64,000 bases of DNA from a virus (lineage: Duplodnaviria > Caudoviricetes): the IMG/VR virus record IMGVR_UViG_3300044846_003114, positions 67,213 to 131,212 of that record; one strand, given 5' to 3'. Positions within the stretch are counted from its first letter, which is position 1; every line of letters starts with the position of its first letter. This document shows, piece by piece, positions 4,874 through 59,276 of the stretch. The translations under genes were made by a program, and so were the position numbers. The notes under the pieces were generated by a model, which was not told the DNA's origin, made no database searches, and saw only the letters and a list, made by a program, of their open reading frames with translations.

Positions 4874-5023
4874 GTAATACAACGATCAGCTCAGGACCTG
4901 ACTTACGGGTAAAGGTAAATTCCCCAGTAAAGTAATACGTCGAACCGGTCGAGGACCTGATACGAACAAAAAAAAAGGATAGTCTTTCGACTACCCTTCT
5001 TCACCTTTCCAACCTATGTATTT

Positions 5024-5587
5024 CTACACAACTACTCCTTCTAAATGTTGTAATACGGACTTCCCTTCCACCCAACAATCGTCCTCACTATAATAACTTC
5101 CACAACATTCAACTAATGTTTTGTGTTCGTGACCTTTATCACAAGTTTCAATTTCGTAAACTTTGTATTGGTAAACTTCACCCGTTAAGTATTCATCATA
5201 AATTCTAACTTCACTATTCATAATCAAACTTAAATTTTCTACACCCCTTTCAAAATCCTTACCACACATTTTGTTTAATTGTTTTTCACTAATGAAAATC
5301 CAACCAACTTGACCACTATCCCATTGACAACTGAACGGACTTGTACTAATAGTAATTCCACTATGGTCGTACATATACAAAGGTTTAATCAAAAGGACTT
5401 TATGGTCACTTACAATTTGTTCCCTCAATTCATCCCAATTATCAAAGTCACTTGACTTGTAGTCTGTTTTGTCACCAATATCATATCTTTTGTGAAAACA
5501 TACAATAGTAGTAATGTTATCCCAATCGGTTCGTGGATTCATCGGGTCGTTATCGTGTTCGACAACCAATTCAAATTTTCTTTTCAT
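5024..5587 (-). CDS. conserved phage/plasmid hypothetical protein
   Basis: NPR..WDN, PLYMYDHSGITIS, WDSGQVGW and YL.GEVY motifs typical of an early mobile-element family. Confidence 0.75.
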   Translation of the reverse strand: MKRKFELVVEHDNDPMNPRTDWDNITTIVCFHKRYDIGDKTDYKSSDFDNWDELREQIVSDHKVLLIKPLYMYDHSGITISTSPFSCQWDSGQVGWIFISEKQLNKMCGKDFERGVENLSLIMNSEVRIYDEYLTGEVYQYKVYEIETCDKGHEHKTLVECCGSYYSEDDCWVEGKSVLQHLEGVVV

Positions 5588-5848: not shown

Positions 5849-6379
5849 TTAAATGAACTCGTAAATGTTTCCGTTGTATGACACTTCTTTAACATTATCC
5901 AAACTTACCGATAAGGTTTGTACCTTTCTTTCACTCGGTTGATTTTTGTAATTGTTTGACTTCACTAACCAACTATCAAACAAAGTTTGGTCAATAGGGT
6001 TTCCCTCAAACTCAAATTCAACTTTTGGTTTCACTTCCATAAACCACTCGTATTGAAGATAATACTTTTTTGTATTTTCGTTGTAAAGGATAACATTGTT
6101 GATATGGTTACCAACTTTATTTTCACTTACTTGAAAATTACCTTCACCACCACCCTTAATTTCATTACCCTTTACTCGTTGTTCGTACTCACCACCGATT
6201 AAAACTCTAACCGATTTTTTCTTCACAACTTTTCCATAATACTTGTTCAAACCTTCCCTACCACCTTTGTTCATTTTAGGGATAGTGTGTGTAACTAAAT
6301 TCATAAATGTAGGATTTTTAACCTCGTTCATCATTTTGATAAACTCACCTTGTAGGATTTTGAAACGATTTTTTTTCAT
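5849..6379 (-). CDS. hypothetical early protein
   Basis: 176-aa ORF with downstream terminator. Confidence 0.75.
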   Translation of the reverse strand: MKKNRFKILQGEFIKMMNEVKNPTFMNLVTHTIPKMNKGGREGLNKYYGKVVKKKSVRVLIGGEYEQRVKGNEIKGGGEGNFQVSENKVGNHINNVILYNENTKKYYLQYEWFMEVKPKVEFEFEGNPIDQTLFDSWLVKSNNYKNQPSERKVQTLSVSLDNVKEVSYNGNIYEFI

Positions 6380-6787
6380 AACATTATTTTGTTTATTTTT
6401 TCAATACTCTAAATTACGAATTTTATCCAATATAAAAAAATATATTTAATACTTTTTTATCCACATTCTTAATTTTTTTTTGTGGACAAATTGTGGATAA
6501 CTTTTTCCCCGTGATCCAGAAAATAAATTACTGGGGAAACGAAGAAAAAAAAATTACAAGGTTGTAAGAAATAAAATACTGGGGTATAAAGAAAAAATCT
6601 GTTGATCTACCTGTTCGATATTACTGGGATGTACCCCAGGAAACTTTTCCTGGACGATCAGATCCAATGGTCGTTGTAATGTAATACCCAGTAATTTTTT
6701 CCTGGAGACTCAGGTTCTACTTCTTCTTCCAAACAAAAAACCCCCGAACTAAAAGTCCGAGGGTTTAACAAATAAATCGTGTCGAGT

Positions 6788-7644: not shown

Positions 7645-7791
7645 TCACATATCGTACGCAAAAGTAGGGATAAAAAACCAAAACATAAAATAAAATGTTA
7701 AACCAATTAGTATTGCCCCTAAAATAGCATCCCAAAATTCCCTTCGGTCGTTTTTATATGTCCACACAAAGGTTTCTATAAATTCTTTCAT
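7645..7791 (-). CDS. small membrane protein
   Basis: MKEFIETFVW...AILGAILIGLTFYFMFWFFIP, one TM helix. Confidence 0.6.
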   Translation of the reverse strand: MKEFIETFVWTYKNDRREFWDAILGAILIGLTFYFMFWFFIPTFAYDM

Positions 7792-7792
7792 C

Positions 7793-8152
7793 TTAATAAG
7801 AGTTTTGGTTATAGGTATCATACGTGTTATAATTTCTTCCACGATTATTTTCTCGATAGTCATTACGAGAAATACGTTGAGGATATCTCGGTCTTGGTAC
7901 AAAGGAGTTTTCCATTTGTTCATCAATCGGTTGAACATTCCAATCTAAATCCATTTGTTTAGAATTTGCCCAATGAATGTTATAAATTGTTTCAAGTCGT
8001 TCAGTTACAATGATATAACTATTCTCGTTGAAGTGAACTTTGGTTACAGGCTCGCCCGTATTCTTGTCAATGATTTCATACATTGAGTGCACATTTTGTG
8101 GATTCATTACCACTGGTCGTTTTGAATTTGAATTTGTCAGTTTAATTAACAT
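7793..8152 (-). CDS. FlbD-like small protein
   Basis: MLIKLT...PVVMNPQNVHSMYE...TKVHF...IIVTERLETI resembles the FlbD fold; N/R/Y-rich tail. Confidence 0.5.
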   Translation of the reverse strand: MLIKLTNSNSKRPVVMNPQNVHSMYEIIDKNTGEPVTKVHFNENSYIIVTERLETIYNIHWANSKQMDLDWNVQPIDEQMENSFVPRPRYPQRISRNDYRENNRGRNYNTYDTYNQNSY

Positions 8153-8433
8153 AACATTTACATTTAAGGTGAATAATATAATTCCTTTTTGTTGATACAA
8201 AGATATAACAATAATATTAAACCACCAAATTTATTTAAAGAAATTTATCTAATGGTTCCGACGGGAACAATGTATTACTGGGGAAATGAAGATGATGTAA
8301 AATCTGTGGTTCCTCCTGAAATCATTTACTGGGTAATACACCCCAGTAATAAATCCGAATCGACGAGGAGGACAAAAAATCTTGAGCATAAAAAAACCCT
8401 CGTAGAAACGAAGGTCTTTATTTAAAATCTTTA

Positions 8434-9102
8434 CTACTTTATCCGTCTTACAACGACCAAGACCATTGCCGCCCCTTTCTTAGCTCCGTCATTGTTGTCG
8501 AGATACTCGAAAATGTTCTCAATGTCATACTTGTAACCACCCTCACGATTAATAAAAGTTTTGATAACCCTCATAGTTTTACCATTGTCTTGCCCTTTGG
8601 GTATTTGATAAGAGTTCAGCTTATCGATAGTATTACAAAAAAGTGTCGACGGCCCTGGTGTGATTCGTTTGTTGAATGTTAAGGACAAAGTACCACCCAC
8701 CTCGATAATATCATTTCTAAATGTATGTCGAAGCTCTTCGTGGAATGTGCCAATTTGACCACAATAGTCTAGTATCAAATGGCTATACTCCCCTTTGTTA
8801 GCATTAAATATAATATCCGCAATTGAGCCAAAGTAAAGCGATGGAGTTTTCCCAACGAAATACTTCGCCTTTTGTTTCTTGATATTGCGTTTTAGCCTGT
8901 CGAAGGTTAGTTCATCTCGTTCGCACATAACATAGCGATACTTTCGAGAAACATCCTGGTAGATTGTTTTCTCAATTTCAAAATGTTCAGCGGGCAAAGA
9001 TAGAATTTTGTAGTTCTTCGTTTCCGAGTTGTGGATTGCTTCGACCATTATATTTCTGGCCGTACTCTTGTTCGTTCCTTTGTGATTGGTGAAGGTGTTC
9101 AT
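8434..9102 (-). CDS. putative class I SAM-dependent methyltransferase-fold protein
   Basis: ILSLPA (motif I-like), MCERD acidic strand end, ILDYCG (motif IV-like), GGTLSLTF. Confidence 0.45.
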   Translation of the reverse strand: MNTFTNHKGTNKSTARNIMVEAIHNSETKNYKILSLPAEHFEIEKTIYQDVSRKYRYVMCERDELTFDRLKRNIKKQKAKYFVGKTPSLYFGSIADIIFNANKGEYSHLILDYCGQIGTFHEELRHTFRNDIIEVGGTLSLTFNKRITPGPSTLFCNTIDKLNSYQIPKGQDNGKTMRVIKTFINREGGYKYDIENIFEYLDNNDGAKKGAAMVLVVVRRIK

Positions 9103-9700: not shown

Positions 9701-10336
9701 TTACTTAGTTAAGATACCCAACTTATGTAGGTCGTTGTAATTAAATGTGTTATTCAACTTCTTACCGAATATGTTTTCGTAAATGATTTCCATATTAACC
9801 TTATTCAACTTCGGTTTCTTAATTCCATACTTCTCACAAAGTTTAACAAAGTTTCGTGTATCACAAACGATTTCAACATTCCTACTTTCTTCGGTATTAA
9901 ACCATTGATTACCCGACTTGGTACCAACCCCACTCACACCAATAGTACAGAATTTAAATCCACCACAATCTCCCCACCAATTATCTTTCATATCCATTTC
10001 ATACACTTTGGTAATTAGAACAAAGATATTCTCATTGTTCCAATGTTTTCTAACCACGATTTGACCTTCAACGAATTTTTTAGTGTCCTTCTTAACAATC
10101 TTTTTAGTTAATCTTTCCACTTCTTCCTCGTAGATTCTTCTCCTCATCATATAATCACTATACATACTATCCTTGATTTTATCCACTCTACTAACGAAAG
10201 AGGTTTCACTTTGATAATACTTGTTCTCCAATTCTTTGATTTTTTCTTTTGTCATCAAGATTTCATTTTCGAAATTTCTTAATGTTGTCGTTTCGTCTTT
10301 ACGAGGTCGACCAACCTTTCTTTTTAATGTTTCCAT
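9701..10336 (-). CDS. hypothetical protein with N-terminal AT-hook and coiled coil
   Basis: KRKVGRPRK AT-hook motif. Confidence 0.7.
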   Translation of the reverse strand: METLKRKVGRPRKDETTTLRNFENEILMTKEKIKELENKYYQSETSFVSRVDKIKDSMYSDYMMRRRIYEEEVERLTKKIVKKDTKKFVEGQIVVRKHWNNENIFVLITKVYEMDMKDNWWGDCGGFKFCTIGVSGVGTKSGNQWFNTEESRNVEIVCDTRNFVKLCEKYGIKKPKLNKVNMEIIYENIFGKKLNNTFNYNDLHKLGILTK

Positions 10337-10729
10337 TTGTTTATGTGTTTAGTGTCCACAAATATAAAACTAATTCCATTATATACAAAATAAAAATGTT
10401 AATCTTTTCTAAAAATTTATTAACCGGTAAACGGGGGATAATGTATTACTGGGGAAATGAAGATGAAGAATTCCTCAAGAGGTGAAATGGATATTACTGG
10501 GATGTATTACCCAGTAATTGATTTCCGTTGGACGGGGTTCCAAAATGGTCTATCATACATGTAATACCCAGTAATGTAATACCGACGATCGTTATAAATT
10601 TCTTCAGAGTTCTGTGTTGAATATCCCAGTAAATTATCTTACCTGTCACGGTGTGTCGGAGATTCCTCCTCAAACAAAAATCCCCCGAAGAAAAACTCCG
10701 AGGGATTCAACAAGAATGGAAAAACAAAT

Positions 10730-11068
10730 CTAACTTTCAATCAACCTATCAATAACATCAACTAATTCATCAAACATAATGTCGTGGTCAATTGTTTCAA
10801 CAACAACCATCATATCGTTCACTAATCGGACTTCATAATAATCTAAACCATTTAATGTAATCAATACGAATTGTTTCCACTTCGCACCCGTTACTTTCAA
10901 TAGAATACCTTTAACATAACCATCCTCCGTTAAACCTATACGGATAAGTTTTGTTACACCCCAACACATAAAAGGAATACCCCCTTGTGTTTTGTACAAT
11001 ACATACATAGTGTCACTGGGGTTAAACTCTCGTACCCCCAAACTGGAAAGTTTTTGTTCCGTTGTCAT
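10730..11068 (-). CDS. hypothetical early protein
   Basis: single-gene cassette. Confidence 0.75.
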   Translation of the reverse strand: MTTEQKLSSLGVREFNPSDTMYVLYKTQGGIPFMCWGVTKLIRIGLTEDGYVKGILLKVTGAKWKQFVLITLNGLDYYEVRLVNDMMVVVETIDHDIMFDELVDVIDRLIES

Positions 11069-13737: not shown

Positions 13738-15153
13738 ATGAAAATCAACGAACTTTACGAAACAGTAATTAATTATCAAACACAGAACAGGGTATTCTTT
13801 CAGAATGCCGAGAATTGGGACATTAGAAGATTGGGTGAAATGTATAAAGAAGGTGAACTAATCTTGCAGGATTGGTTTCAACGAGACTATTGTTGGAACA
13901 AACCTCAGATATGTTCATTAATGCACACCTTGCTACACACCCCAACTTTATTACCCGAGATTGTACTCATTAGAATCGGAGACAAGTACCATGTGGCTGA
14001 CGGTCACCAAAGACTTCGTAGTATTTTATTGGAAGTTTTAACCAATCCCGATTTCAAGTACTTTTCAAAAGAACTTACCGAATCAACCAAGTACTTTAAC
14101 GTGGGACCTAAGAATATGGAACTATGGAAGGAGTTTAGTAGGGAGATTGAAAGAAAAACTATTACAGTTAAAGTTATCATCAATAATAACTTGGATGAAA
14201 ATGAATTACGTAACCTCAGTTCTTATGTCTTTAAGAAATGGAATAATGGTACCGCTTTGAGCCCTGCCGAGAAGAGAGGAGCATTTCCATCCGATTTAAA
14301 CATCAATATCGTTCAAAGACTTAAGAATACCATTCCATTGGAAAAACAAATATCTCTATTGGTTTCAAGAACGTCAAGTAAGAATAAGTTTAATGAGTTG
14401 GTGGAAAAGGTTTTCTTTCACTTCATGAATCCAAACGCATTACATGACCCAAATGATGATGGGTATAGTATCATACATTCCTATTCCGAAGATGAATATA
14501 GTGGTAAATTTAAAACCTTCTATAAGTTGTTTAACGTTATGACGGATACGGTTTATAACTATACCAACTTCAATGGACATTTTGGACCAGGTGCTTGTTG
14601 TATGAGAGATGTTCTTACCTTTGTAAATGATTTATATCTTAAGAATGAAATTAAATCCTTTGATGAGTACAGTTGGTACCTTACATCTGTTCTTGATACT
14701 CTACATACAACTTATTACAATAACAAACGATTTGACGATTACCATGGAGGTAACTACGAAATAATTGATATGGAAATCAATAACACTTGGTTTAAAGGTT
14801 TCTTCTGTCATTTCGGTAAAGGTCAAGATCATAAATTCGAAAATCGTAGAACATTCCTATATGACAATAGAGAGTTGTTTGGCAAACTTATTGAGTATGA
14901 TCACCAAAGATTGTTTACACAGGTACAGAAACAAATAAAATATATTGAACAAAATAGAGTCTGTGTTGGATTCGATGGTGGCGGTTGCAGATACCACGGG
15001 ACCGAACCTTTGTCATATGGTGAAATGGAAGGTGACCATATCGTTGAACATACCAATGGAGGAAAAACGGTTATCGAAAACCTTCAAATGTTATGTATGG
15101 AATGCCATTCCGAAAAAACAAAACAATTCAATACAAAAGAAATTATTGAATAA
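13738..15153 (+). CDS. DUF262 (GmrS/ParB-like) domain + C-terminal HNH nuclease
   Basis: FQRDYCW, VADGHQRL, F..WN.G..LS..E; C-terminal GDHIVEHTNGGKT..ENLQMLC.ECH..K. Confidence 0.85.
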   Translation: MKINELYETVINYQTQNRVFFQNAENWDIRRLGEMYKEGELILQDWFQRDYCWNKPQICSLMHTLLHTPTLLPEIVLIRIGDKYHVADGHQRLRSILLEVLTNPDFKYFSKELTESTKYFNVGPKNMELWKEFSREIERKTITVKVIINNNLDENELRNLSSYVFKKWNNGTALSPAEKRGAFPSDLNINIVQRLKNTIPLEKQISLLVSRTSSKNKFNELVEKVFFHFMNPNALHDPNDDGYSIIHSYSEDEYSGKFKTFYKLFNVMTDTVYNYTNFNGHFGPGACCMRDVLTFVNDLYLKNEIKSFDEYSWYLTSVLDTLHTTYYNNKRFDDYHGGNYEIIDMEINNTWFKGFFCHFGKGQDHKFENRRTFLYDNRELFGKLIEYDHQRLFTQVQKQIKYIEQNRVCVGFDGGGCRYHGTEPLSYGEMEGDHIVEHTNGGKTVIENLQMLCMECHSEKTKQFNTKEIIE

Positions 15154-51362: not shown

Positions 51363-51772
51363 TGGTGGAGGTGACGGGACTCGAACCCGTGTCTTTCCTG
51401 TTCAACAATAAATGACTACACGTTTATTCTGTTAGTTCACAACAGACAAATATTTGGTTCCTATTTTGACATCGTTACCAACAACTGTGTCGAGTTCACT
51501 TTTGTTACGGTAGCCCTCTGAACGAGACCGTTTGTTTCTTTTTGGGTAGAAACCACACCTTGAGTACTTCTGTTCCTAGGTTATATGTACGTCGACCCGA
51601 TTGTAGTTTCGCCTTAGGCTACTGCTACGTTAGAAGTTGCAAGAATACCTGCTACTTCCATGTTGTTGTAAACGTTGCCGTCTAAAATTTTCCACCGTAG
51701 ATTTAAGTCATAGATGAAGTCTGACTACGTGCCACTTACCCCTGATACCTGAAATCAATGCCAGGCACCCCC
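51363..51772 (-). ncRNA. ssrA: tmRNA
   Basis: 5' GGGGGTG / CACCTCC-ACCA acceptor with G3:U70, T-arm GGGTTCGAGTCCC, tag frame 51679-51614 encoding GNVYNNMEVAGILATSNVAVA*. Confidence 0.92.
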
Positions 51773-53621: not shown

Positions 53622-53756
53622 AATATCAAATATAAGTAAAATTTATTATAATGCAAAAAAAAAGTCAGAATAAATCTGACTAATCTTTTTGGGCCGAACG
53701 GTTTTAAAACGTTCCAATTCCACCACTTTGTTTTACTAAACAAAGAAAAAAAAAAC

Positions 53757-54553
53757 ACTGAGAATACATGTTTTAACAATTGACTTAGGGACATTATTTG
53801 ATTCTTCCCTTTTCCACTACCTTTTGAGTAGTACCAATCAGCGGCGGTCAATTAGATTAACCAATCCTTAAGTCGTTATATACTCTTTTAATACTCATTA
53901 CTCATCAAAGATGCCTCCCTGATTCAACCTTGCGGGTTTAGAGAACTTTTTTAAAAATCACATTGGGCTTGAGACCCTTTGTGGCCGTGAACCCCTCACG
54001 ACTATGTAGCCACCTGTCTACAACGACTGACGAACACTTTTTCTTGTTATGTTTAAGTTGTTAAACCGTAATTAACAAAATTTAGTTTCCGAATTTGGGA
54101 AAGTAGTGGTTCGTCGACCAGCCAAGCCACCTTTTGAGCGACTCGATACTAAACTACTCTCTGTAACATCCCTGCTACCATATTTTTGGACCCCTTCAAA
54201 ACTAAACTCTTGGTAGAGTTTAATAAAGGATGATAACGACACCACTCGTACTTCACCATACCTTTCGGTTTTAAGATTCCCATCATATTGAATCACGCAA
54301 TTGTAAAGTTGGATAACGATACTTCTCACAATAACTCTATGGATTATTCTTATTGGTGTTCCCACCTCAACCAAACAACTCGGATTGCTTGGTCATCAAA
54401 CCACTTTCCCTAAAGTGTTACCCTCAGTACTTAAGGTTCAACGATACTCCACTTGCCTACTCGAGTTCCATTTCTGAAACCGCAACTTACCCCAACCAAG
54501 GGTTTGTCACTTTATCCCACTTTCATGGTTTATTTTGTTGACCATAGGCGGCC
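53757..54553 (-). ncRNA. ~800-nt large structured RNA, GOLLD-like
   Basis: no convincing ORF; GC-richer than flanks; many hairpins (ACC GAAA GGT, AACC CGCAA GGTT, CTAC TCAAAAG GTAG); own promoter (54594) and boxA-like site; terminator at ~53655-53681; next to tRNA cluster. Confidence 0.6.
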
Positions 54554-54907: not shown

Positions 54908-55692
54908 TCAGATTAAAGTTTTTCTAAAAAGTTTATAATCAATTTCTTTTTTATCATAACCAAAAAAACCACATTCATTTTCAGTTAAATAACAAACTTT
55001 ATTATAATCATAAAAACTAACTTTTTTAATATAATCAACATTCATATGGTGATAAGTTATTTCATATATGTTTTTAAAATATTGGTAAAATGTTGAGAAT
55101 AAAAAACTTACATCGCTTGGATAATCCTCTAAAAAATTAAATTTATTTGTAATAAAATCTATTTTGTCTAATTTATTATAAAATTTGATTTCTTTATTCT
55201 TTATAGATTATTTTGTATGGATTTATCAATATCCTCAATTTTAAATATTTTATAGTTTGGACCTAATTTTGAATCATATAATAATTTTAAATTGGTTTGA
55301 CTATTAATTATTTCTTCTTTATATATTTTATTATTACGTAATATTTGTGAGCTTTGTGGAATATAGTGGAAATCATCACACCCCTTTAAAAAAATATCAT
55401 ATTTGTTAATGTAACTTTCGATATCATATATGTTAGTTTTTTTTATGTGTTTTATAATATCATCTTCCTCGTGTTTTAATATATTTTCTATCCAAAAATA
55501 AGATGAAAAAAATCTATCAATTGGGTTTCTTACAAAAATATAAACATTATTTAAAATTTTATTGGGATCATCTTCCAATTCTATTTCAATATTCAAATGT
55601 TTAAATAAATGAATAAATGTAGTATATAATAAAGTATGCCCACTTTTAAATGGGATTATTATTGATAGGTCTTTTTCTTTTATGTTTAACAT
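54908..55692 (-). pseudogene. sulfotransferase-family gene split by a 1-nt frameshift near 55203
   Basis: PFKSGHT, FVRNPIDRFFSSY, DFHYIPQ; after TAA at 55201 the -1 frame continues ~97 codons through ...ENECGFFGY... to TGA at 54908. Confidence 0.65.
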
Positions 55693-55704
55693 TTCATATA
55701 ATTG

Positions 55705-55855
55705 CTGTAGTGGATGGGTTCGAACCACCAAGATGAGATTCGGTAAGTAACATATCGCCGGCCGGCTGGTGGTCTACCCCCTCATATTACTTACCTATTT
55801 CTTTGTCATCGCCCCCGAGACAGGAGGGTACGTTTGCCAATTTCGTCACACTACA
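55705..55855 (-). tRNA. tRNA-Asp(GTC)-like RNA with 82-nt variable arm
   Basis: acceptor TGTAGTG/CACTACA, G73, D-arm ACG-AAATTGGCAAA-CGT, anticodon arm CCCTC-CTGTCTC-GGGGG, T-arm GGTGG-TTCGAAC-CCATC. Confidence 0.7.
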
Positions 55856-56047
55856 AAATAACACCCTTTTATCAGCCGAAGCCTCACATAACCTTAGTGT
55901 GGAACCACCGGTAGGTGTCATGAATGATTACCATTGAGAATGTAGATTTTCACTAACTCGATTTAGCGGTCTCTTTGATAATTTTTTGATGGATGAAAAA
56001 CATCTATTTTTCTTGTGGATTTCCATCGGAATCCCATAACTTAAAAG

Positions 56048-56121
56048 TGGACCAGATAGGAATCGAACCTATTACCTTCACATTATGAGTGTGCCGCTCT
56101 AACCGAGTGAGCTACAAGTCC
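56048..56121 (-). tRNA. tRNA-Ile2/Met (CAT)
   Basis: cloverleaf, loop CTCATAA, A73. Confidence 0.85.
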
Positions 56122-56131
56122 AAAATTCACG

Positions 56132-56205
56132 TGATCCCGTTTGGATTCGAACCAAAGACCCACATCTTAGAAGGATGTTGCTCTATCCAACTGAGCTACG
56201 GAACC
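56132..56205 (-). tRNA. tRNA-Arg (TCT)
   Basis: ACATC-CTTCTAA-GATGT. Confidence 0.92.
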
Positions 56206-56326
56206 AAAGTAATGTAATGTCTGTACGGTTTGTATCTAATCAGCACCTTTGTACATGCTTCAAAAGTTTCCATTTCATACGTAGCGTCCGTTCCGTCACT
56301 CATTTCTGAGTCATTACACTAAAATT

Positions 56327-56761
56327 TTATTTAATGTTTTTTGCACGATATGTATCTGTTTGTGAATGACAATTTGGACATAACATTCTCAAGTTTTCTA
56401 ACTTATGATTTGTTCGATTTCCATCAATATGGTCTAATTCCATATTTATTTTTTTACCATTCCATTCTTCAATGTCACATACTGAACATTTATTTTCAAT
56501 TATTTTTTCTTTTAATAATCTGTTTTTTAATTTGAATGTTTGAAAATGAGGGTGTTTACCATCCAATATTTCCTGTAAATCAATTTTAGGTGGGACAATT
56601 TTATTTATTCCTTTCCCCGATTGATTTGTGTTGTAACAATCAAATTTAATTGCATACTTTTTAAAAGTATTAAAATGTAATTCTAATTTAACTGCGGCAT
56701 CTGCCATAGAATTAGAATTTTGACACATTTCTCTAAAATGTTTTTCATCTATTTGTTTCAT
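56327..56761 (-). CDS. HNH homing endonuclease within tRNA cluster
   Basis: CSVC...ELDHIDGNRTNHKLENLRMLCPNCHSQT. Confidence 0.9.
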   Translation of the reverse strand: MKQIDEKHFREMCQNSNSMADAAVKLELHFNTFKKYAIKFDCYNTNQSGKGINKIVPPKIDLQEILDGKHPHFQTFKLKNRLLKEKIIENKCSVCDIEEWNGKKINMELDHIDGNRTNHKLENLRMLCPNCHSQTDTYRAKNIK

Positions 56762-56814
56762 ATTAATAAATATCAGACAAATATGAAAAACACTCCGAAG
56801 TGTCTATTTTTTTG

Positions 56815-56899
56815 TACTTCCGACCAGAATCGAACTGGTACGAACTTTCAGTTCATAGCATTTTAAGTGCTACGTGTCTACCAATTCCACCACGGAAGC
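56815..56899 (-). tRNA. tRNA-Leu (TAA)
   Basis: TAGCA-CTTAAAA-TGCTA, long variable arm. Confidence 0.92.
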
Positions 56900-57017
56900 A
56901 TTTTGTTTTTCCAATACATCAAAGAACCATAATTCAAATATAATAAAAAAAAATGATATAAAAAAACCCCGAACAATTTTTTTAGTTTGTTCAGGGTTCT
57001 AACTTAACTAAAAATTT

Positions 57018-57467
57018 TTATTTTACTTTATATGATAACCCAAGTCCTAATGTAAAATCACTACCAACTAAATTACCAATTGTCCATAAATTTATAACAG
57101 TACTTGGTCTTAGTGGATTATACATTATAAGAAAATTTGGTTTGTTACCATTAAGTGTCGGTTGTAATCCAAATCCAACAATGGCCTTGTCTTCTTTTAC
57201 TTGTCTAAGAACACCGAACTTCATATTATCAGATAGATTTCCTGTGTTGGTATTGACACCAGGAGGAATTGATATACCTCCATTTGGGGTTTTCAATTCA
57301 CCGTATGGAAGACCTGCATAAAATCCCCAACCTTTTTTCATAAAACCACCCGTTATATAACCATCTGATGGACCACCTTTTCGAGTGGCGGTTATAAACC
57401 ACTCTTGTCCATTTGCTACGACTTCTACTCCCAAAAGTAACGTTAGCACTAAAAAAATTTTTTTCAT
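57018..57467 (-). CDS. secreted/outer-membrane beta-strand protein
   Basis: signal peptide; C-terminal LGLGLSYKVK. Confidence 0.65.
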   Translation of the reverse strand: MKKIFLVLTLLLGVEVVANGQEWFITATRKGGPSDGYITGGFMKKGWGFYAGLPYGELKTPNGGISIPPGVNTNTGNLSDNMKFGVLRQVKEDKAIVGFGLQPTLNGNKPNFLIMYNPLRPSTVINLWTIGNLVGSDFTLGLGLSYKVK

Positions 57468-57766
57468 TTTTTTGATTTGGACAAGGAGTCTTCCGTTGCC
57501 CATTTTTCTTTTAACTTTGCTACCTTCTCAATCTTTACAATTTTACCATTTAATTTGGTAATCTCGTCCGCGATTTCTTTGGTTTTGACGGCCCTGCTAG
57601 CGAAATTCTCATCTGTTACTTCAACCCATTCAATCTTCCTTTCAAGAGATTTAATCTCTTTTTTTATTTGATTGACTGACTTTCTTTCGTCTGAAAGACT
57701 TGGGTCGATAGATGATGTTAATGTATTAAAAAATAACATTAACGATAGTGTGATTTTATCTATCAT
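57464..57766 (-). CDS. coiled-coil hypothetical protein
   Basis: TATTTATA 4 nt upstream. Confidence 0.65.
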   Translation of the reverse strand: MIDKITLSLMLFFNTLTSSIDPSLSDERKSVNQIKKEIKSLERKIEWVEVTDENFASRAVKTKEIADEITKLNGKIVKIEKVAKLKEKWATEDSLSKSKK

Positions 57767-57844
57767 ATATTATAAATATTAATAATATGATAAATATACA
57801 GAATAAAATATTGGAAATCAATATCTTAATATAAAAAAATATTG

Positions 57845-57916
57845 TACCCCCGACGGGATTCGAACCCGTATTACATCCGTGAAAGGGATGTGACCTAACC
57901 CTTAGTCGACAGGGGC
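57845..57916 (-). tRNA. tRNA-Glu (TTC)
   Basis: CATCC-CTTTCAC-GGATG. Confidence 0.92.
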
Positions 57917-58012
57917 AAATAGGAACTAACATTGCTATCAGGGTTTAAATGGTTCACAGATAAATCTGGAATCACCACCTACTGGTTTTACAGTATCTTA
58001 GTTAATTCTTTG

Positions 58013-58098
58013 CGGAAGGAGTAGGATTCGAACCCACGGTACCTTTCAGTACTTCGGTTTTCAAGACCGACGCGATAGACCAACTCTGCCATCCTTCC
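58013..58098 (-). tRNA. tRNA-Ser (TGA)
   Basis: TCGGT-CTTGAAA-ACCGA, long variable arm. Confidence 0.92.
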
Positions 58099-58106
58099 AA
58101 TATTTG

Positions 58107-58180
58107 CGGACTGTACGGGACTCGAACCCGTGAACTCCACCGTGACAGGGTGGCATGATAACCAACTTCACCAACAATCC
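58107..58180 (-). tRNA. tRNA-Asp (GTC)
   Basis: CCACC-CTGTCAC-GGTGG. Confidence 0.92.
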
Positions 58181-58188
58181 AATATTCT

Positions 58189-58569
58189 TTAATACTTTAC
58201 GTAATCTTTTACCTCCCTAATTTCTGAATTAGTAACCATATTAATTTCATTCTTCAACCTAAACCTTTCGTCGTTTGTAAAATATACTTTTCTAGCTAAT
58301 TCAATAAAATCATCATTGAATTTTTTTTCTTTTTCCATAACTCTTAAATTATCTTCAATATCCCACAAGTTTGTGTTGACTAAAATTAGTTTATCATAAA
58401 TTAATTCTACTTCAGGGTTATTAAAATAACTCAAAGAAAAGTTATATAGTAATTCAAATTCTTTATTGATTAAAATTAACTTTTCCTCATCAAGTACTTT
58501 TGTTTTTTTAACTTGAAGAATTGAAAGTTTATCAATCATTTCTCCAATACTAACAGGAATCGATATCAT
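58189..58569 (-). CDS. DUF6165-like protein
   Basis: PVSIGE.IDKLSIL.VK...N..LWDIED..R...F.ELARKVY.TNDERF..K..IN....S.I.EVK.Y. Confidence 0.75.
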   Translation of the reverse strand: MISIPVSIGEMIDKLSILQVKKTKVLDEEKLILINKEFELLYNFSLSYFNNPEVELIYDKLILVNTNLWDIEDNLRVMEKEKKFNDDFIELARKVYFTNDERFRLKNEINMVTNSEIREVKDYVKY

Positions 58570-58613
58570 ACTTATTTTGTTATTATAAGATTTTTCTTAG
58601 TTGTCACTTGTTG

Positions 58614-58686
58614 AGCCCAAAGTCAGACTCGAACTGACGACCTGCTGATTACAAATCAGCTGCTCTACCAACTGAGCTATTCGGGC
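58614..58686 (-). tRNA. tRNA-Thr (TGT)
   Basis: GCTGA-TTTGTAA-TCAGC. Confidence 0.92.
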
Positions 58687-58751
58687 TTGTTTCTTTCACA
58701 AAGATAATAAATATATATGAATATACAAAATTATTTGTAAAAATATTTTAG

Positions 58752-58822
58752 TTGCGGGGCCGGTAGTCGAAACCGGAAAAAGACACAGCTTATGAGACTG
58801 GTCGGGTACCCTCCTCCCCGCA
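58752..58822 (-). tRNA. degenerate initiator-like tRNA-Met (CAT)
   Basis: TGCGGGG/CCCCGCA acceptor, CTCATAA loop, shrunken D-arm and atypical T-loop. Confidence 0.6.
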
Positions 58823-58883
58823 ATAATAACATTTTTTTGCTCACTAACATTTTTTTTGTTAGTGTACATTTTTTTTGTTAGTG

Positions 58884-58954
58884 TTGTCCCTCGTGGATTC
58901 GAACCACAACTAGATGGACCAAAACCACCTGTACTACCGTTATACTAAAGGACA
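58884..58954 (-). tRNA. tRNA-Gln (TTG)
   Basis: GGTGG-TTTTGGT-CCATC. Confidence 0.9.
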
Positions 58955-58959
58955 ATATG

Positions 58960-59039
58960 TACCCAAGGTCGGACTCGAACCGACACGCCTTTCGACACGG
59001 TTTCTAAGACCGCTGTGTATACCATTCCACCACTCGGGT
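58960..59039 (-). tRNA. tRNA-Leu (TAG)
   Basis: GCGGT-CTTAGAA-ACCGT. Confidence 0.92.
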
Positions 59040-59046
59040 ATTATTG

Positions 59047-59118
59047 CACGCATGTAAGGACTCGAACCTTCATCTTCGGTTTTGGAGACCGAAATTCTAC
59101 CAATTGAACTACACACGC
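59047..59118 (-). tRNA. tRNA-Trp (CCA)
   Basis: TCGGT-CTCCAAA-ACCGA. Confidence 0.9.
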
Positions 59119-59124
59119 GTTTTG

Positions 59125-59196
59125 CGTTGATGATAGGACTCGAACCTATAATCGTTCGGTTAACAGCCGAAAGCTTCACCATTAAGCTACATCAAC
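59125..59196 (-). tRNA. tRNA-Asn (GTT)
   Basis: TTCGG-CTGTTAA-CCGAA. Confidence 0.92.
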
Positions 59197-59201
59197 AACT
59201 G

Positions 59202-59276
59202 TAGGGTAAAGAGGACTCGAACCTCCATGATACCTTGCTCCCAAAGCAAGTGACTTAGCCATTAGTCCATTACCCT
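59202..59276 (-). tRNA. tRNA-Pro (TGG)
   Basis: CTTGC-TTTGGGA-GCAAG. Confidence 0.9.

Follow-up and report, generated by a model that had tools for sequence, protein, structure and literature searches.

What is a tRNA-Asp-like RNA doing with a giant structured arm where a normal tRNA-Asp has a variable loop of 4 to 5 nucleotides (nt)? The question is raised by a locus in IMGVR_UViG_3300044846_003114, a 131-kb viral record of the Caudoviricetes, of which we analyzed 64,000 nt (positions 67,213 to 131,212; here called the window and numbered from its first letter). A first-pass annotation of this DNA had described a tRNA-Asp-like RNA with complete arms, GUC, U37, and G73, and we confirmed this on the minus strand: the RNA is 151 nt long, running from 55855 (its nt 1) to 55705 (its nt 151). 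We regard it as very probable that this RNA belongs to a conserved, expressed, non-decoding family of tRNA-Asp-derived RNAs of Bacteroidota and their phages. That the family also acts off the ribosome as a tRNA-Asp mimic, engaging aspartyl-tRNA synthetase (AspRS) and possibly the tRNA-dependent amidotransferase GatCAB, is a reading that we favor tentatively and with slightly less than even confidence; its mechanism is one that we infer.

The RNA has a complete cloverleaf, all parts of which lie on the minus strand. The 7-base-pair (bp) acceptor stem pairs UGUAGUG (55849 to 55855) with CACUACA, which together with the discriminator G73 (55705) occupies 55705 to 55712. The stem is followed by U8 and by a D arm with a 3-bp stem, ACG/CGU, and an 11-nt loop carrying G18 and G19 (55830 to 55846). 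The anticodon-like arm is CCCUC-CUGUCUC-GGGGG (55812 to 55828), and its 7-nt loop, CUGUCUC, has U33 in this copy, GUC at positions 34 to 36 (55819 to 55821), U37 (55818), and C38 (55817). The T arm, GGUGG-UUCGAAC-CCAUC (55713 to 55729), is canonical. A stretch of 82 nt separates the anticodon-like stem from the T stem, and here too the first-pass annotation was right to speak of a giant structured arm, with the helices that it named and a G+C-rich tip present. The insert (55732 to 55810) is predicted to fold into a 4-bp helix P1a (GAUG/CAUC), a 4-nt bulge, a 3-bp helix P1b (AGA/UCU), an A-rich internal loop, a 12-bp helix P2 (GGUAAGUAAUAU/AUGUUACUUACC), and an apical domain. The apical domain holds a motif, GGGGGUAGACCACC (55768 to 55781; family consensus GGG-U-N-GACCAC), which may form a mini-hairpin, and a tip hairpin with a perfect 10-nt palindrome, GCCGGCCGGC (55757 to 55766), self-complementary through the loop.

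ARAGORN called 12 tRNAs and a transfer-messenger RNA (tmRNA) on the window, and over the whole window it did not call the candidate. Rfam gave no match to the candidate at gathering scores, nor any at E≤10 on 55300 to 56100, with the tRNA, ribozyme, and intron families included. The energy of the single-sequence fold was no better than that of shuffles (z of -1.10, with 32 of 200 shuffles as good). Therefore, the evidence must be comparative.

We scanned viral sequences with an arm pattern of 17 letters. At least 118 stretches matched, and the architecture was the same in nearly all of them. A strict script then extracted full-length copies from 92 of 119 loci, which gave 65 distinct sequences of 117 to 171 nt. 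We aligned 44 of these, leaving out very short or very long inserts and copies with a hairpin inserted in the D loop, a form seen in some relatives. On this alignment RNAalifold predicted the cloverleaf and the helices of the insert; 23 of the 40 predicted pairs showed compensatory changes. In a second covariation test of the 44 sequences, for which the canonical 5-bp anticodon-like stem was written into the structure, 97.9% of the cells were paired, compared with 41 to 53% when partners were slid by 1 to 3 columns. Double changes occurred in 23 of 39 pairs (269 cells), and the covariation score was reached by 0 of 500 shuffles. The support extends to every stem except the anticodon-like one. 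All seven acceptor pairs hold, five of them with double changes; D-stem pairs 10:25 (AU, UA, or GC) and 11:24 (CG, UA, or UG) covary; and four of the five T-stem pairs show double changes, with G53, U54, U55, C56, A58, and C61 conserved. Within the insert, P1a, P1b, and P2 covary, with double changes in 2 of 4, 3 of 3, and 6 of 6 pairs, respectively. The columns of the apical motif are invariant, and one pair flanking it covaries (GC in 27 sequences, UA in 8, AU in 2, and unpaired in 7). Thus, the pairing that the first-pass annotation had proposed for the insert is conserved in homologues.

In the 44-sequence set the anticodon-like stem is invariant, because the search pattern fixed that stem. 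A second scan, through an insert motif, found members in which the stem covaries (CCCAC/GUGGG, CCGUC/GACGG, CCGUA/UACGG, and others) and the loop stays C-N-G-U-C-Y-C despite the stem changes. A covariance model, R1, scored the family at 86 to 160 bits, with one match per locus, and ordinary tRNAs at 48.8 bits or less. The window copy reached 148.9 bits; the top ordinary tRNA there was the window's own tRNA-Asp, at 45.6 bits. On these comparisons, the family is evidently a conserved architecture and not a chance one.

An nhmmer search detected the family, always as a single copy, in at least 142 viral loci, the window included. Other tRNAs are present in 87 of the 142 loci, all co-oriented, with a median gap of 13 nt to the nearest tRNA; ARAGORN called the family RNA at none of the 142. 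The window copy lies at the end of a minus-strand tRNA array (56047 to 59276). The full tRNA core accounts for this position among co-oriented tRNA genes and for an assembled RNA that ends at the discriminator, as described below. No protein neighbor is universal in the phages: the largest real clusters extend to about 30 of the 118 non-identical loci, and the only hints that Pfam provided on the phage neighbor proteins were to RNase H-like, metallophosphatase, and PD-(D/E)XK domains. A blastn search with 311 nt against a cultured-phage collection gave no match at E≤0.01, a sensitivity at which the family is not visible.

The family is also bacterial. Using a pattern that joined the D-loop motif to the arm, we found 147 copies in at least 120 Bacteroidota loci, with the same tRNA body and with the T loop 43 to 117 nt after the arm. 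All 80 listed matches come, by their record titles, from Bacteroidota: Cyclobacteriaceae, Spirosoma and other Cytophagales, Saprospiraceae, Chitinophagales, Marivirga, and Persicobacter. A search with R1, independent of the patterns, gave family-grade matches in 14 of 151 Bacteroidota genomes, and in a fifteenth a family copy is cut by the contig end; matches of 50 to 61 bits, inspected at 16 loci, were tRNA-Leu. At the 18 loci annotated with Rfam, the copies lie outside tRNA clusters, and Rfam annotated neither the copies nor any large RNA nearby. Some copies are in tandem. Several of the loci inspected have a terminator-like hairpin with a T run after the RNA gene. Of the 120 bacterial loci listed, 75 have a divergently transcribed gene for an AsnC/Lrp-type regulator some 145 nt upstream, and the downstream genes include SufB in 51, SufC in 28, and a FadD-type ligase in 36. 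Judged by record titles, the adjacency to the AsnC/Lrp-type gene is found in several Cytophagales families and in Chitinophagales, but not in Saprospiraceae or the Algoriphagus group. A canonical tRNA-Asp was also present in 5 of 5 isolate genomes with the family RNA. Therefore, the RNA is an additional species. From this distribution, the family is evidently chromosomal in many Bacteroidota, and phages appear to have captured it into their tRNA islands.

Three observations on individual bacterial loci may be added. A Persicobacter isolate (G046 contig C1, 657176 to 658674; L251) has eight tandem canonical tRNA-Asp genes and five tandem family copies 172 nt apart; both have therefore been amplified. 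A near-identical stretch of about 37 nt lies 3' of the RNA gene in several Cyclobacteriaceae loci (L225, L228, L232, L240, L248, L257, L259, and L262). An Arcicella locus holds a DUF805 RNA (L254, 7259 to 7325, minus strand).

The RNA is expressed. We compared contigs from four metatranscriptome runs over 55400 to 56300; assembled contigs of this kind drop rare forms. In run X16, a 152-nt contig with a depth of 47 equals 55705 to 55843 with 0 differences and retains the insert. It has adapter letters at both ends, and those before 55705 abut it directly; in other contigs adapter letters come directly after 55844/55845. A relative in run X19 (12 differences) shows the same 3' boundary at the discriminator. 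None of the four runs covered 55400 to 55678, which argues against DNA carry-over, and none of the three joints reported in them lies inside the insert. Thus, expression, which the first-pass annotation had named as a point to check, is seen in metatranscriptome libraries. The RNA is a discrete species that keeps its arm and has one end exactly at the predicted G73. The 10 to 12 nt missing at the 5' side may be a library effect. Upstream of the gene, RNA contigs extend over the spacer as far as tRNA-Met, which is what a polycistronic precursor would give. Two joints, from 55856 or 55861 to 55936 with 13 or 8 other letters between, come from related phages, in which the 74- to 79-nt upstream spacer is therefore replaced by a shorter stretch.

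Which nucleotides does the family keep? U1, G2, C71, A72, G73, and C74 do not vary across 249 distinct full-length members, 247 of which have a loop of the form NNNUCYC. Only C and U occur at position 32, whereas position 33 may be any of U, C, G, and A. At position 34 four members have A and two have U, and the others have G; position 37 is always a pyrimidine (U or C), and C38 is invariant. A decoding loop would keep U33 and a purine at position 37. Therefore, the RNA is very unlikely to read codons. The C after G73 recurs in all 282 copies of the 12 classes listed (286 copies were counted) and is found in the window at 55704; in host tRNA genes, too, a C typically follows the discriminator, and an encoded CCA is mostly absent. 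According to an excerpt of PMC9976931, the strong aspartate identity determinants are G73, G34, U35, C36, and C38, plus G2-C71. The family keeps this set, with G73 and G2-C71 invariant and GUC with C38 in nearly all members. However, its first pair is not the G1-C72 of bacterial tRNA-Asp but a GatCAB-type U1-A72, present in all 249. In the same review, U1-A72 is the pair that allows the amidotransferase to amidate Asp-tRNA, and G1-C72 is the pair that blocks this. The sequence of the RNA therefore combines an AspRS-type anticodon and discriminator with a tRNA-Asn-type end.

The conservation of these determinants together with U1-A72 points to an off-ribosome mimic of tRNA-Asp. In the mechanism that we propose, the RNA would engage AspRS through the GUC/C38/G73 set and possibly GatCAB through U1-A72, while its arm and unusual loop would exclude it from decoding. 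It might be a carrier to which Asp is attached and perhaps amidated to Asn, or it might be an uncharged RNA that titrates AspRS and GatCAB. In the phage copies, the self-complementary tip described below suggests that two molecules pair. The suggestion of the first-pass annotation that the RNA is an aminoacyl donor outside translation possibly comes close to this. A more specific version, which we consider distinctly unlikely, is a dedicated off-ribosome carrier for RNA-dependent Asn chemistry: the ordinary AspRS of the cell would charge the RNA, GatCAB would amidate the Asp on it to Asn, the arm, Y37, and N33 would bar elongation factor EF-Tu and the ribosome, and the AsnC-type regulator would tune its level. 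If true, this version would explain why in these Bacteroidota GatCAB is kept beside asparaginyl- and glutaminyl-tRNA synthetases (AsnRS and GlnRS) and why phages copied the gene.

We compared the enzyme content of 19 Bacteroidota genomes that carry the RNA, five of them chosen through pattern matches, with that of 61 that do not. GatB was present in 19/19 carriers and 51/61 non-carriers, AsnRS in 19/19 and 45/61, and GlnRS in 18/19 and 22/61; all three occurred together in 18/19 carriers and 12/61 non-carriers. The 10 genomes without GatB all lack the RNA. These counts fit engagement of AspRS and GatCAB without proving it. A complementarity with asparagine synthetase did not emerge, as AsnB-type genes showed no pattern (15/19 carriers and 35/61 non-carriers).

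However, several observations weigh against mimicry of this kind. Shared ancestry may explain the association with the three enzymes, and GatB is found in 51 genomes that do without the RNA. As 15 of the 19 carriers have an AsnB-type gene, it is not obvious that they need to make Asn by way of an RNA; of 45 phage records with the family, only 3 have Asn-synthase-like genes. No second AspRS was found, each of 60 genomes having one bacterial-type AspRS. Class II synthetases approach tRNA from the arm side, and the giant arm might hinder AspRS. The six members without G34 depart from the aspartate set. The loss of G1-C72 removes a pair that, according to the excerpt of PMC9976931, helps to place the 3' end in Escherichia coli AspRS. 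Finally, the abundant X16 contig of the family stops at G73 and lacks CCA, whereas run X16 also yielded a tRNA-Arg-like contig that has CCA; this argues against a mostly charged RNA.

The remaining features of the window bear on the neighborhood of the RNA. A GOLLD RNA (full-length RF02032 match, 308 bits; 53755 to 54161, minus strand) lies 1.5 kb downstream on the same strand as the candidate, and a tmRNA (51363 to 51772, minus strand; tag peptide from ARAGORN, 82.7 bits in Rfam) lies 4 kb from it, on the same strand as the tRNA array and GOLLD; the candidate is upstream of both. The candidate is not GOLLD or part of it, as the two loci are separate, with an open reading frame (ORF) between them. 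It is not the tmRNA either, since ARAGORN and Rfam both find that RNA at 51363 to 51772 and nothing at the candidate. PHROGs hits on ten window ORFs comprised only HNH endonucleases, a methyltransferase, and a glucosyltransferase. HNH endonuclease-type ORFs are at 56327 to 56761 (minus strand) and 13738 to 15153 (plus strand), and one of the two lies inside the tRNA array, between tRNA genes (E value of 6.7e-34).

The main rival to AspRS mimicry, which we consider possible but rather unlikely, is that the tRNA shape serves only processing and stability and that the function lies in the arm, which would bind a protein or RNA partner or build a dimer or higher assembly, possibly with the large phage RNAs of tRNA islands. 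The arm does have conserved parts. It measures some 45 to 120 nt and contains internal loops and a junction. Both basal helices, the long helix, and the A-rich internal loop recur throughout the family, and the GGG-U-N-GACCAC motif occurs in the majority of phage members and in 75 of the 138 distinct inserts from bacteria. GOLLD, besides being the neighbor of the RNA in the window, is on 14 of 44 family-bearing viral records, and an excerpt of a preprint (bioRxiv 10.1101/2024.12.08.627333) describes GOLLD and ROOL as homo-oligomeric cages whose genes lie close to tRNA islands. Many phage members have a self-complementary tip: of 64 distinct ones, 39 have a 10-nt palindrome there, 7 an 8-nt one, and 12 a 6-nt one. 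These palindromes have at least 12 different sequences, and 10 nt is reached by about 1.9% of shuffles. Since an ordinary hairpin needs no palindromic loop, this suggests that the tip of the phage copies pairs two molecules. The palindrome is not a family-wide feature, as only 30 of the 138 distinct bacterial inserts have one of 8 nt or more.

Conservation, however, is highest in the acceptor end and the anticodon-like arm and not at the tip of the giant arm, and processing enzymes need neither of the first two. Short phage and bacterial forms drop the apical motif and still keep the GUC loop. We rejected, for the same reason, the idea that the GUC loop is conserved because it kisses GAC in the apical motif; the base before GAC and position 37 also do not covary. 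Nor does the family depend on GOLLD, which is enriched but not required: it is present in 3 and missing in 4 of 7 near-complete family-bearing phage genomes. That Rfam found no large RNA near the 18 bacterial loci also speaks against this rival.

The first-pass annotation had also proposed a decoy for anticodon nucleases. In the form that we weighed, phages would carry the RNA as a decoy or replacement that protects them from nucleases and toxins, of the host or of competitors, whose targets are anticodon loops of the tRNA-Asp type. The location in phage tRNA islands fits this, as does the retention of the GUC loop despite the loss of decoding features. Of 45 family-bearing viral records, 23 have a canonical tRNA-Asp, but of the 7 near-complete ones only 3 do, and therefore some phages carry the RNA without a decoding tRNA-Asp. 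However, the family is not a phage invention: it is chromosomal at a conserved locus in many bacteria, with terminators of its own, which weakens the decoy as the primary role. The invariant acceptor end and the conserved arm would also be left unexplained, and we consider a decoy improbable.

Still less probable is an elongator function, in which the RNA would serve as a tRNA-Asp isoacceptor and the ribosome would tolerate its long arm. The complete cloverleaf, the conserved tertiary bases, the GUC triplet, G73, and the tRNA-type gene end are what such a tRNA would have. Against it stand a position 33 that may be any base, a position 37 that is never a purine, an arm of up to 120 nt with internal loops and a junction, an assembled RNA without CCA, and the canonical tRNA-Asp in all five bacterial carriers tested. 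The window likewise has a normal tRNA-Asp(gtc), which the first-pass annotation had placed beside the candidate and ARAGORN locates at 58106 to 58180. Finally, we find it scarcely credible that the insert is an intron, as also raised by the first-pass annotation, or a small mobile element, and that its removal yields a normal tRNA-Asp: the insert does lie between intact tRNA halves and does vary in length, but the depth-47 contig keeps all of it, no joint in the four runs skips it, its helices and motifs are under selection without any match to a ribozyme or intron family (Rfam, E≤10), and U37 and the variable N33 would persist after its removal.

How does the family compare with known RNAs? 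With canonical bacterial tRNA-Asp (GUC) it shares the cloverleaf core, GUC, C38, G73, G2-C71, and the tertiary bases of the T and D loops. It differs in having U1-A72 for G1-C72, a pyrimidine at 37, a variable position 33, and an arm of 45 to 120 nt for a 4- to 5-nt loop, and it escapes both ARAGORN and the Rfam tRNA model. It shares U1-A72 with G73 with tRNA-Asn, the GatCAB substrate, but its triplet is GUC and not GUU. A GatCAB substrate of the tRNA-Asn type would further carry Asp from a (non-discriminating) AspRS and have a D loop that lacks the antideterminant base 20a. Staphylococcal tRNA-Gly donates its amino acid for cell-wall bridges, outside translation. Like such non-proteinogenic tRNAs, the family RNA is an extra species beside the decoding tRNA, with features expected to weaken its use in translation; those tRNAs, however, are of normal size and known to be charged, whereas the family RNA has a giant arm and its charging is putative. 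Class II tRNAs and allo-tRNAs have a helical arm between the anticodon and T arms and a 3-bp D stem, as the family does, but in the family this arm exceeds theirs in length several-fold and contains a bulge, an internal loop, and an apical junction. The acceptor/T arrangement of the family is the usual 7/5, as opposed to 8/4 or 9/3 (PMC5389517).

The tmRNA and YrlA resemble the family in fusing a tRNA-like module to a large extra domain, and they too occur in phages. In tmRNA the anticodon arm is replaced and there is a tag reading frame, whereas the family RNA has all four arms and carries its extra domain at the variable-arm position. To our knowledge, no natural RNA has a domain this large at that position. 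In an excerpt of PMC4201824, the ends of YrlA lie in the Ro-binding stem. The candidate is not a YrlA, an RNA whose gene adjoins rsr (Ro60): its ends form an acceptor stem, and the recurrent neighbors annotated include AsnC-type, SufB, SufC, and FadD-type genes in bacteria and tRNAs in viruses, although Ro60 was not searched by name. Ro60 and RtcB, for which the first-pass annotation had suggested inspecting the neighbors, did not appear among the 9 bacterial and 10 viral or window neighbor proteins annotated, neither of the two having been searched by name.

We found no description of this RNA in the full-text literature searched, and it is absent from Rfam 15. A viral catalogue (PMC10690425) lists a candidate called DNAVirus_1850 at 27 IMG/VR sites, one of which overlaps a tRNA-Asp call. 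DNAVirus_1850 may be the same family. The family is large and apparently uncatalogued. Four points go beyond what the first-pass annotation had described: that the family originates in the host, that position 33 varies, that U1-A72 is invariant, and that the tip is self-complementary.

Several phage tRNA islands outside the window contain a second tRNA-like scaffold. Copies in the same phage have near-identical acceptor, D, and T arms, while the 40 to 90 nt in the place of the anticodon and variable regions differ completely. Such copies are found in L021 (minus strand, 5130 to 5276, 6143 to 6262, 6478 to 6616, 7683 to 7830, and 8137 to 8251), L027 (plus strand, 1958 to 2060, 10174 to 10280, 10395 to 10517, and 10651 to 10808), and L029 (plus strand, 4907 to 5049 and 5866 to 5973), and also in L034, L049, and L098. 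ARAGORN called none of the five L021 copies, and the Rfam tRNA model matched only two of them, weakly (34 to 37 bits). The L021 tRNA island also holds a near-threshold match to the freshwater-1 RNA (8501 to 8562, minus strand; 70 bits, with a cutoff of 72).

If our reading holds, an abundant bacterial phylum and its phages have a widespread, conserved RNA that standard annotation has overlooked, one in which a complete tRNA body is combined with a large structured domain and the nucleotides read by AspRS and the tRNA-dependent amidotransferase are kept. The tip of the phage copies would be a candidate natural RNA dimer, beside the cage-forming GOLLD RNA. The presence of AsnRS, GlnRS, and GatCAB together in some Bacteroidetes is a known puzzle, stated in an excerpt of PMC4206432, and the family would bear on why many bacteria retain GatCAB despite having both synthetases. 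It would also bear on how cells exclude tRNA mimics from translation and on why phages carry translation-related RNAs of their hosts other than tRNAs.
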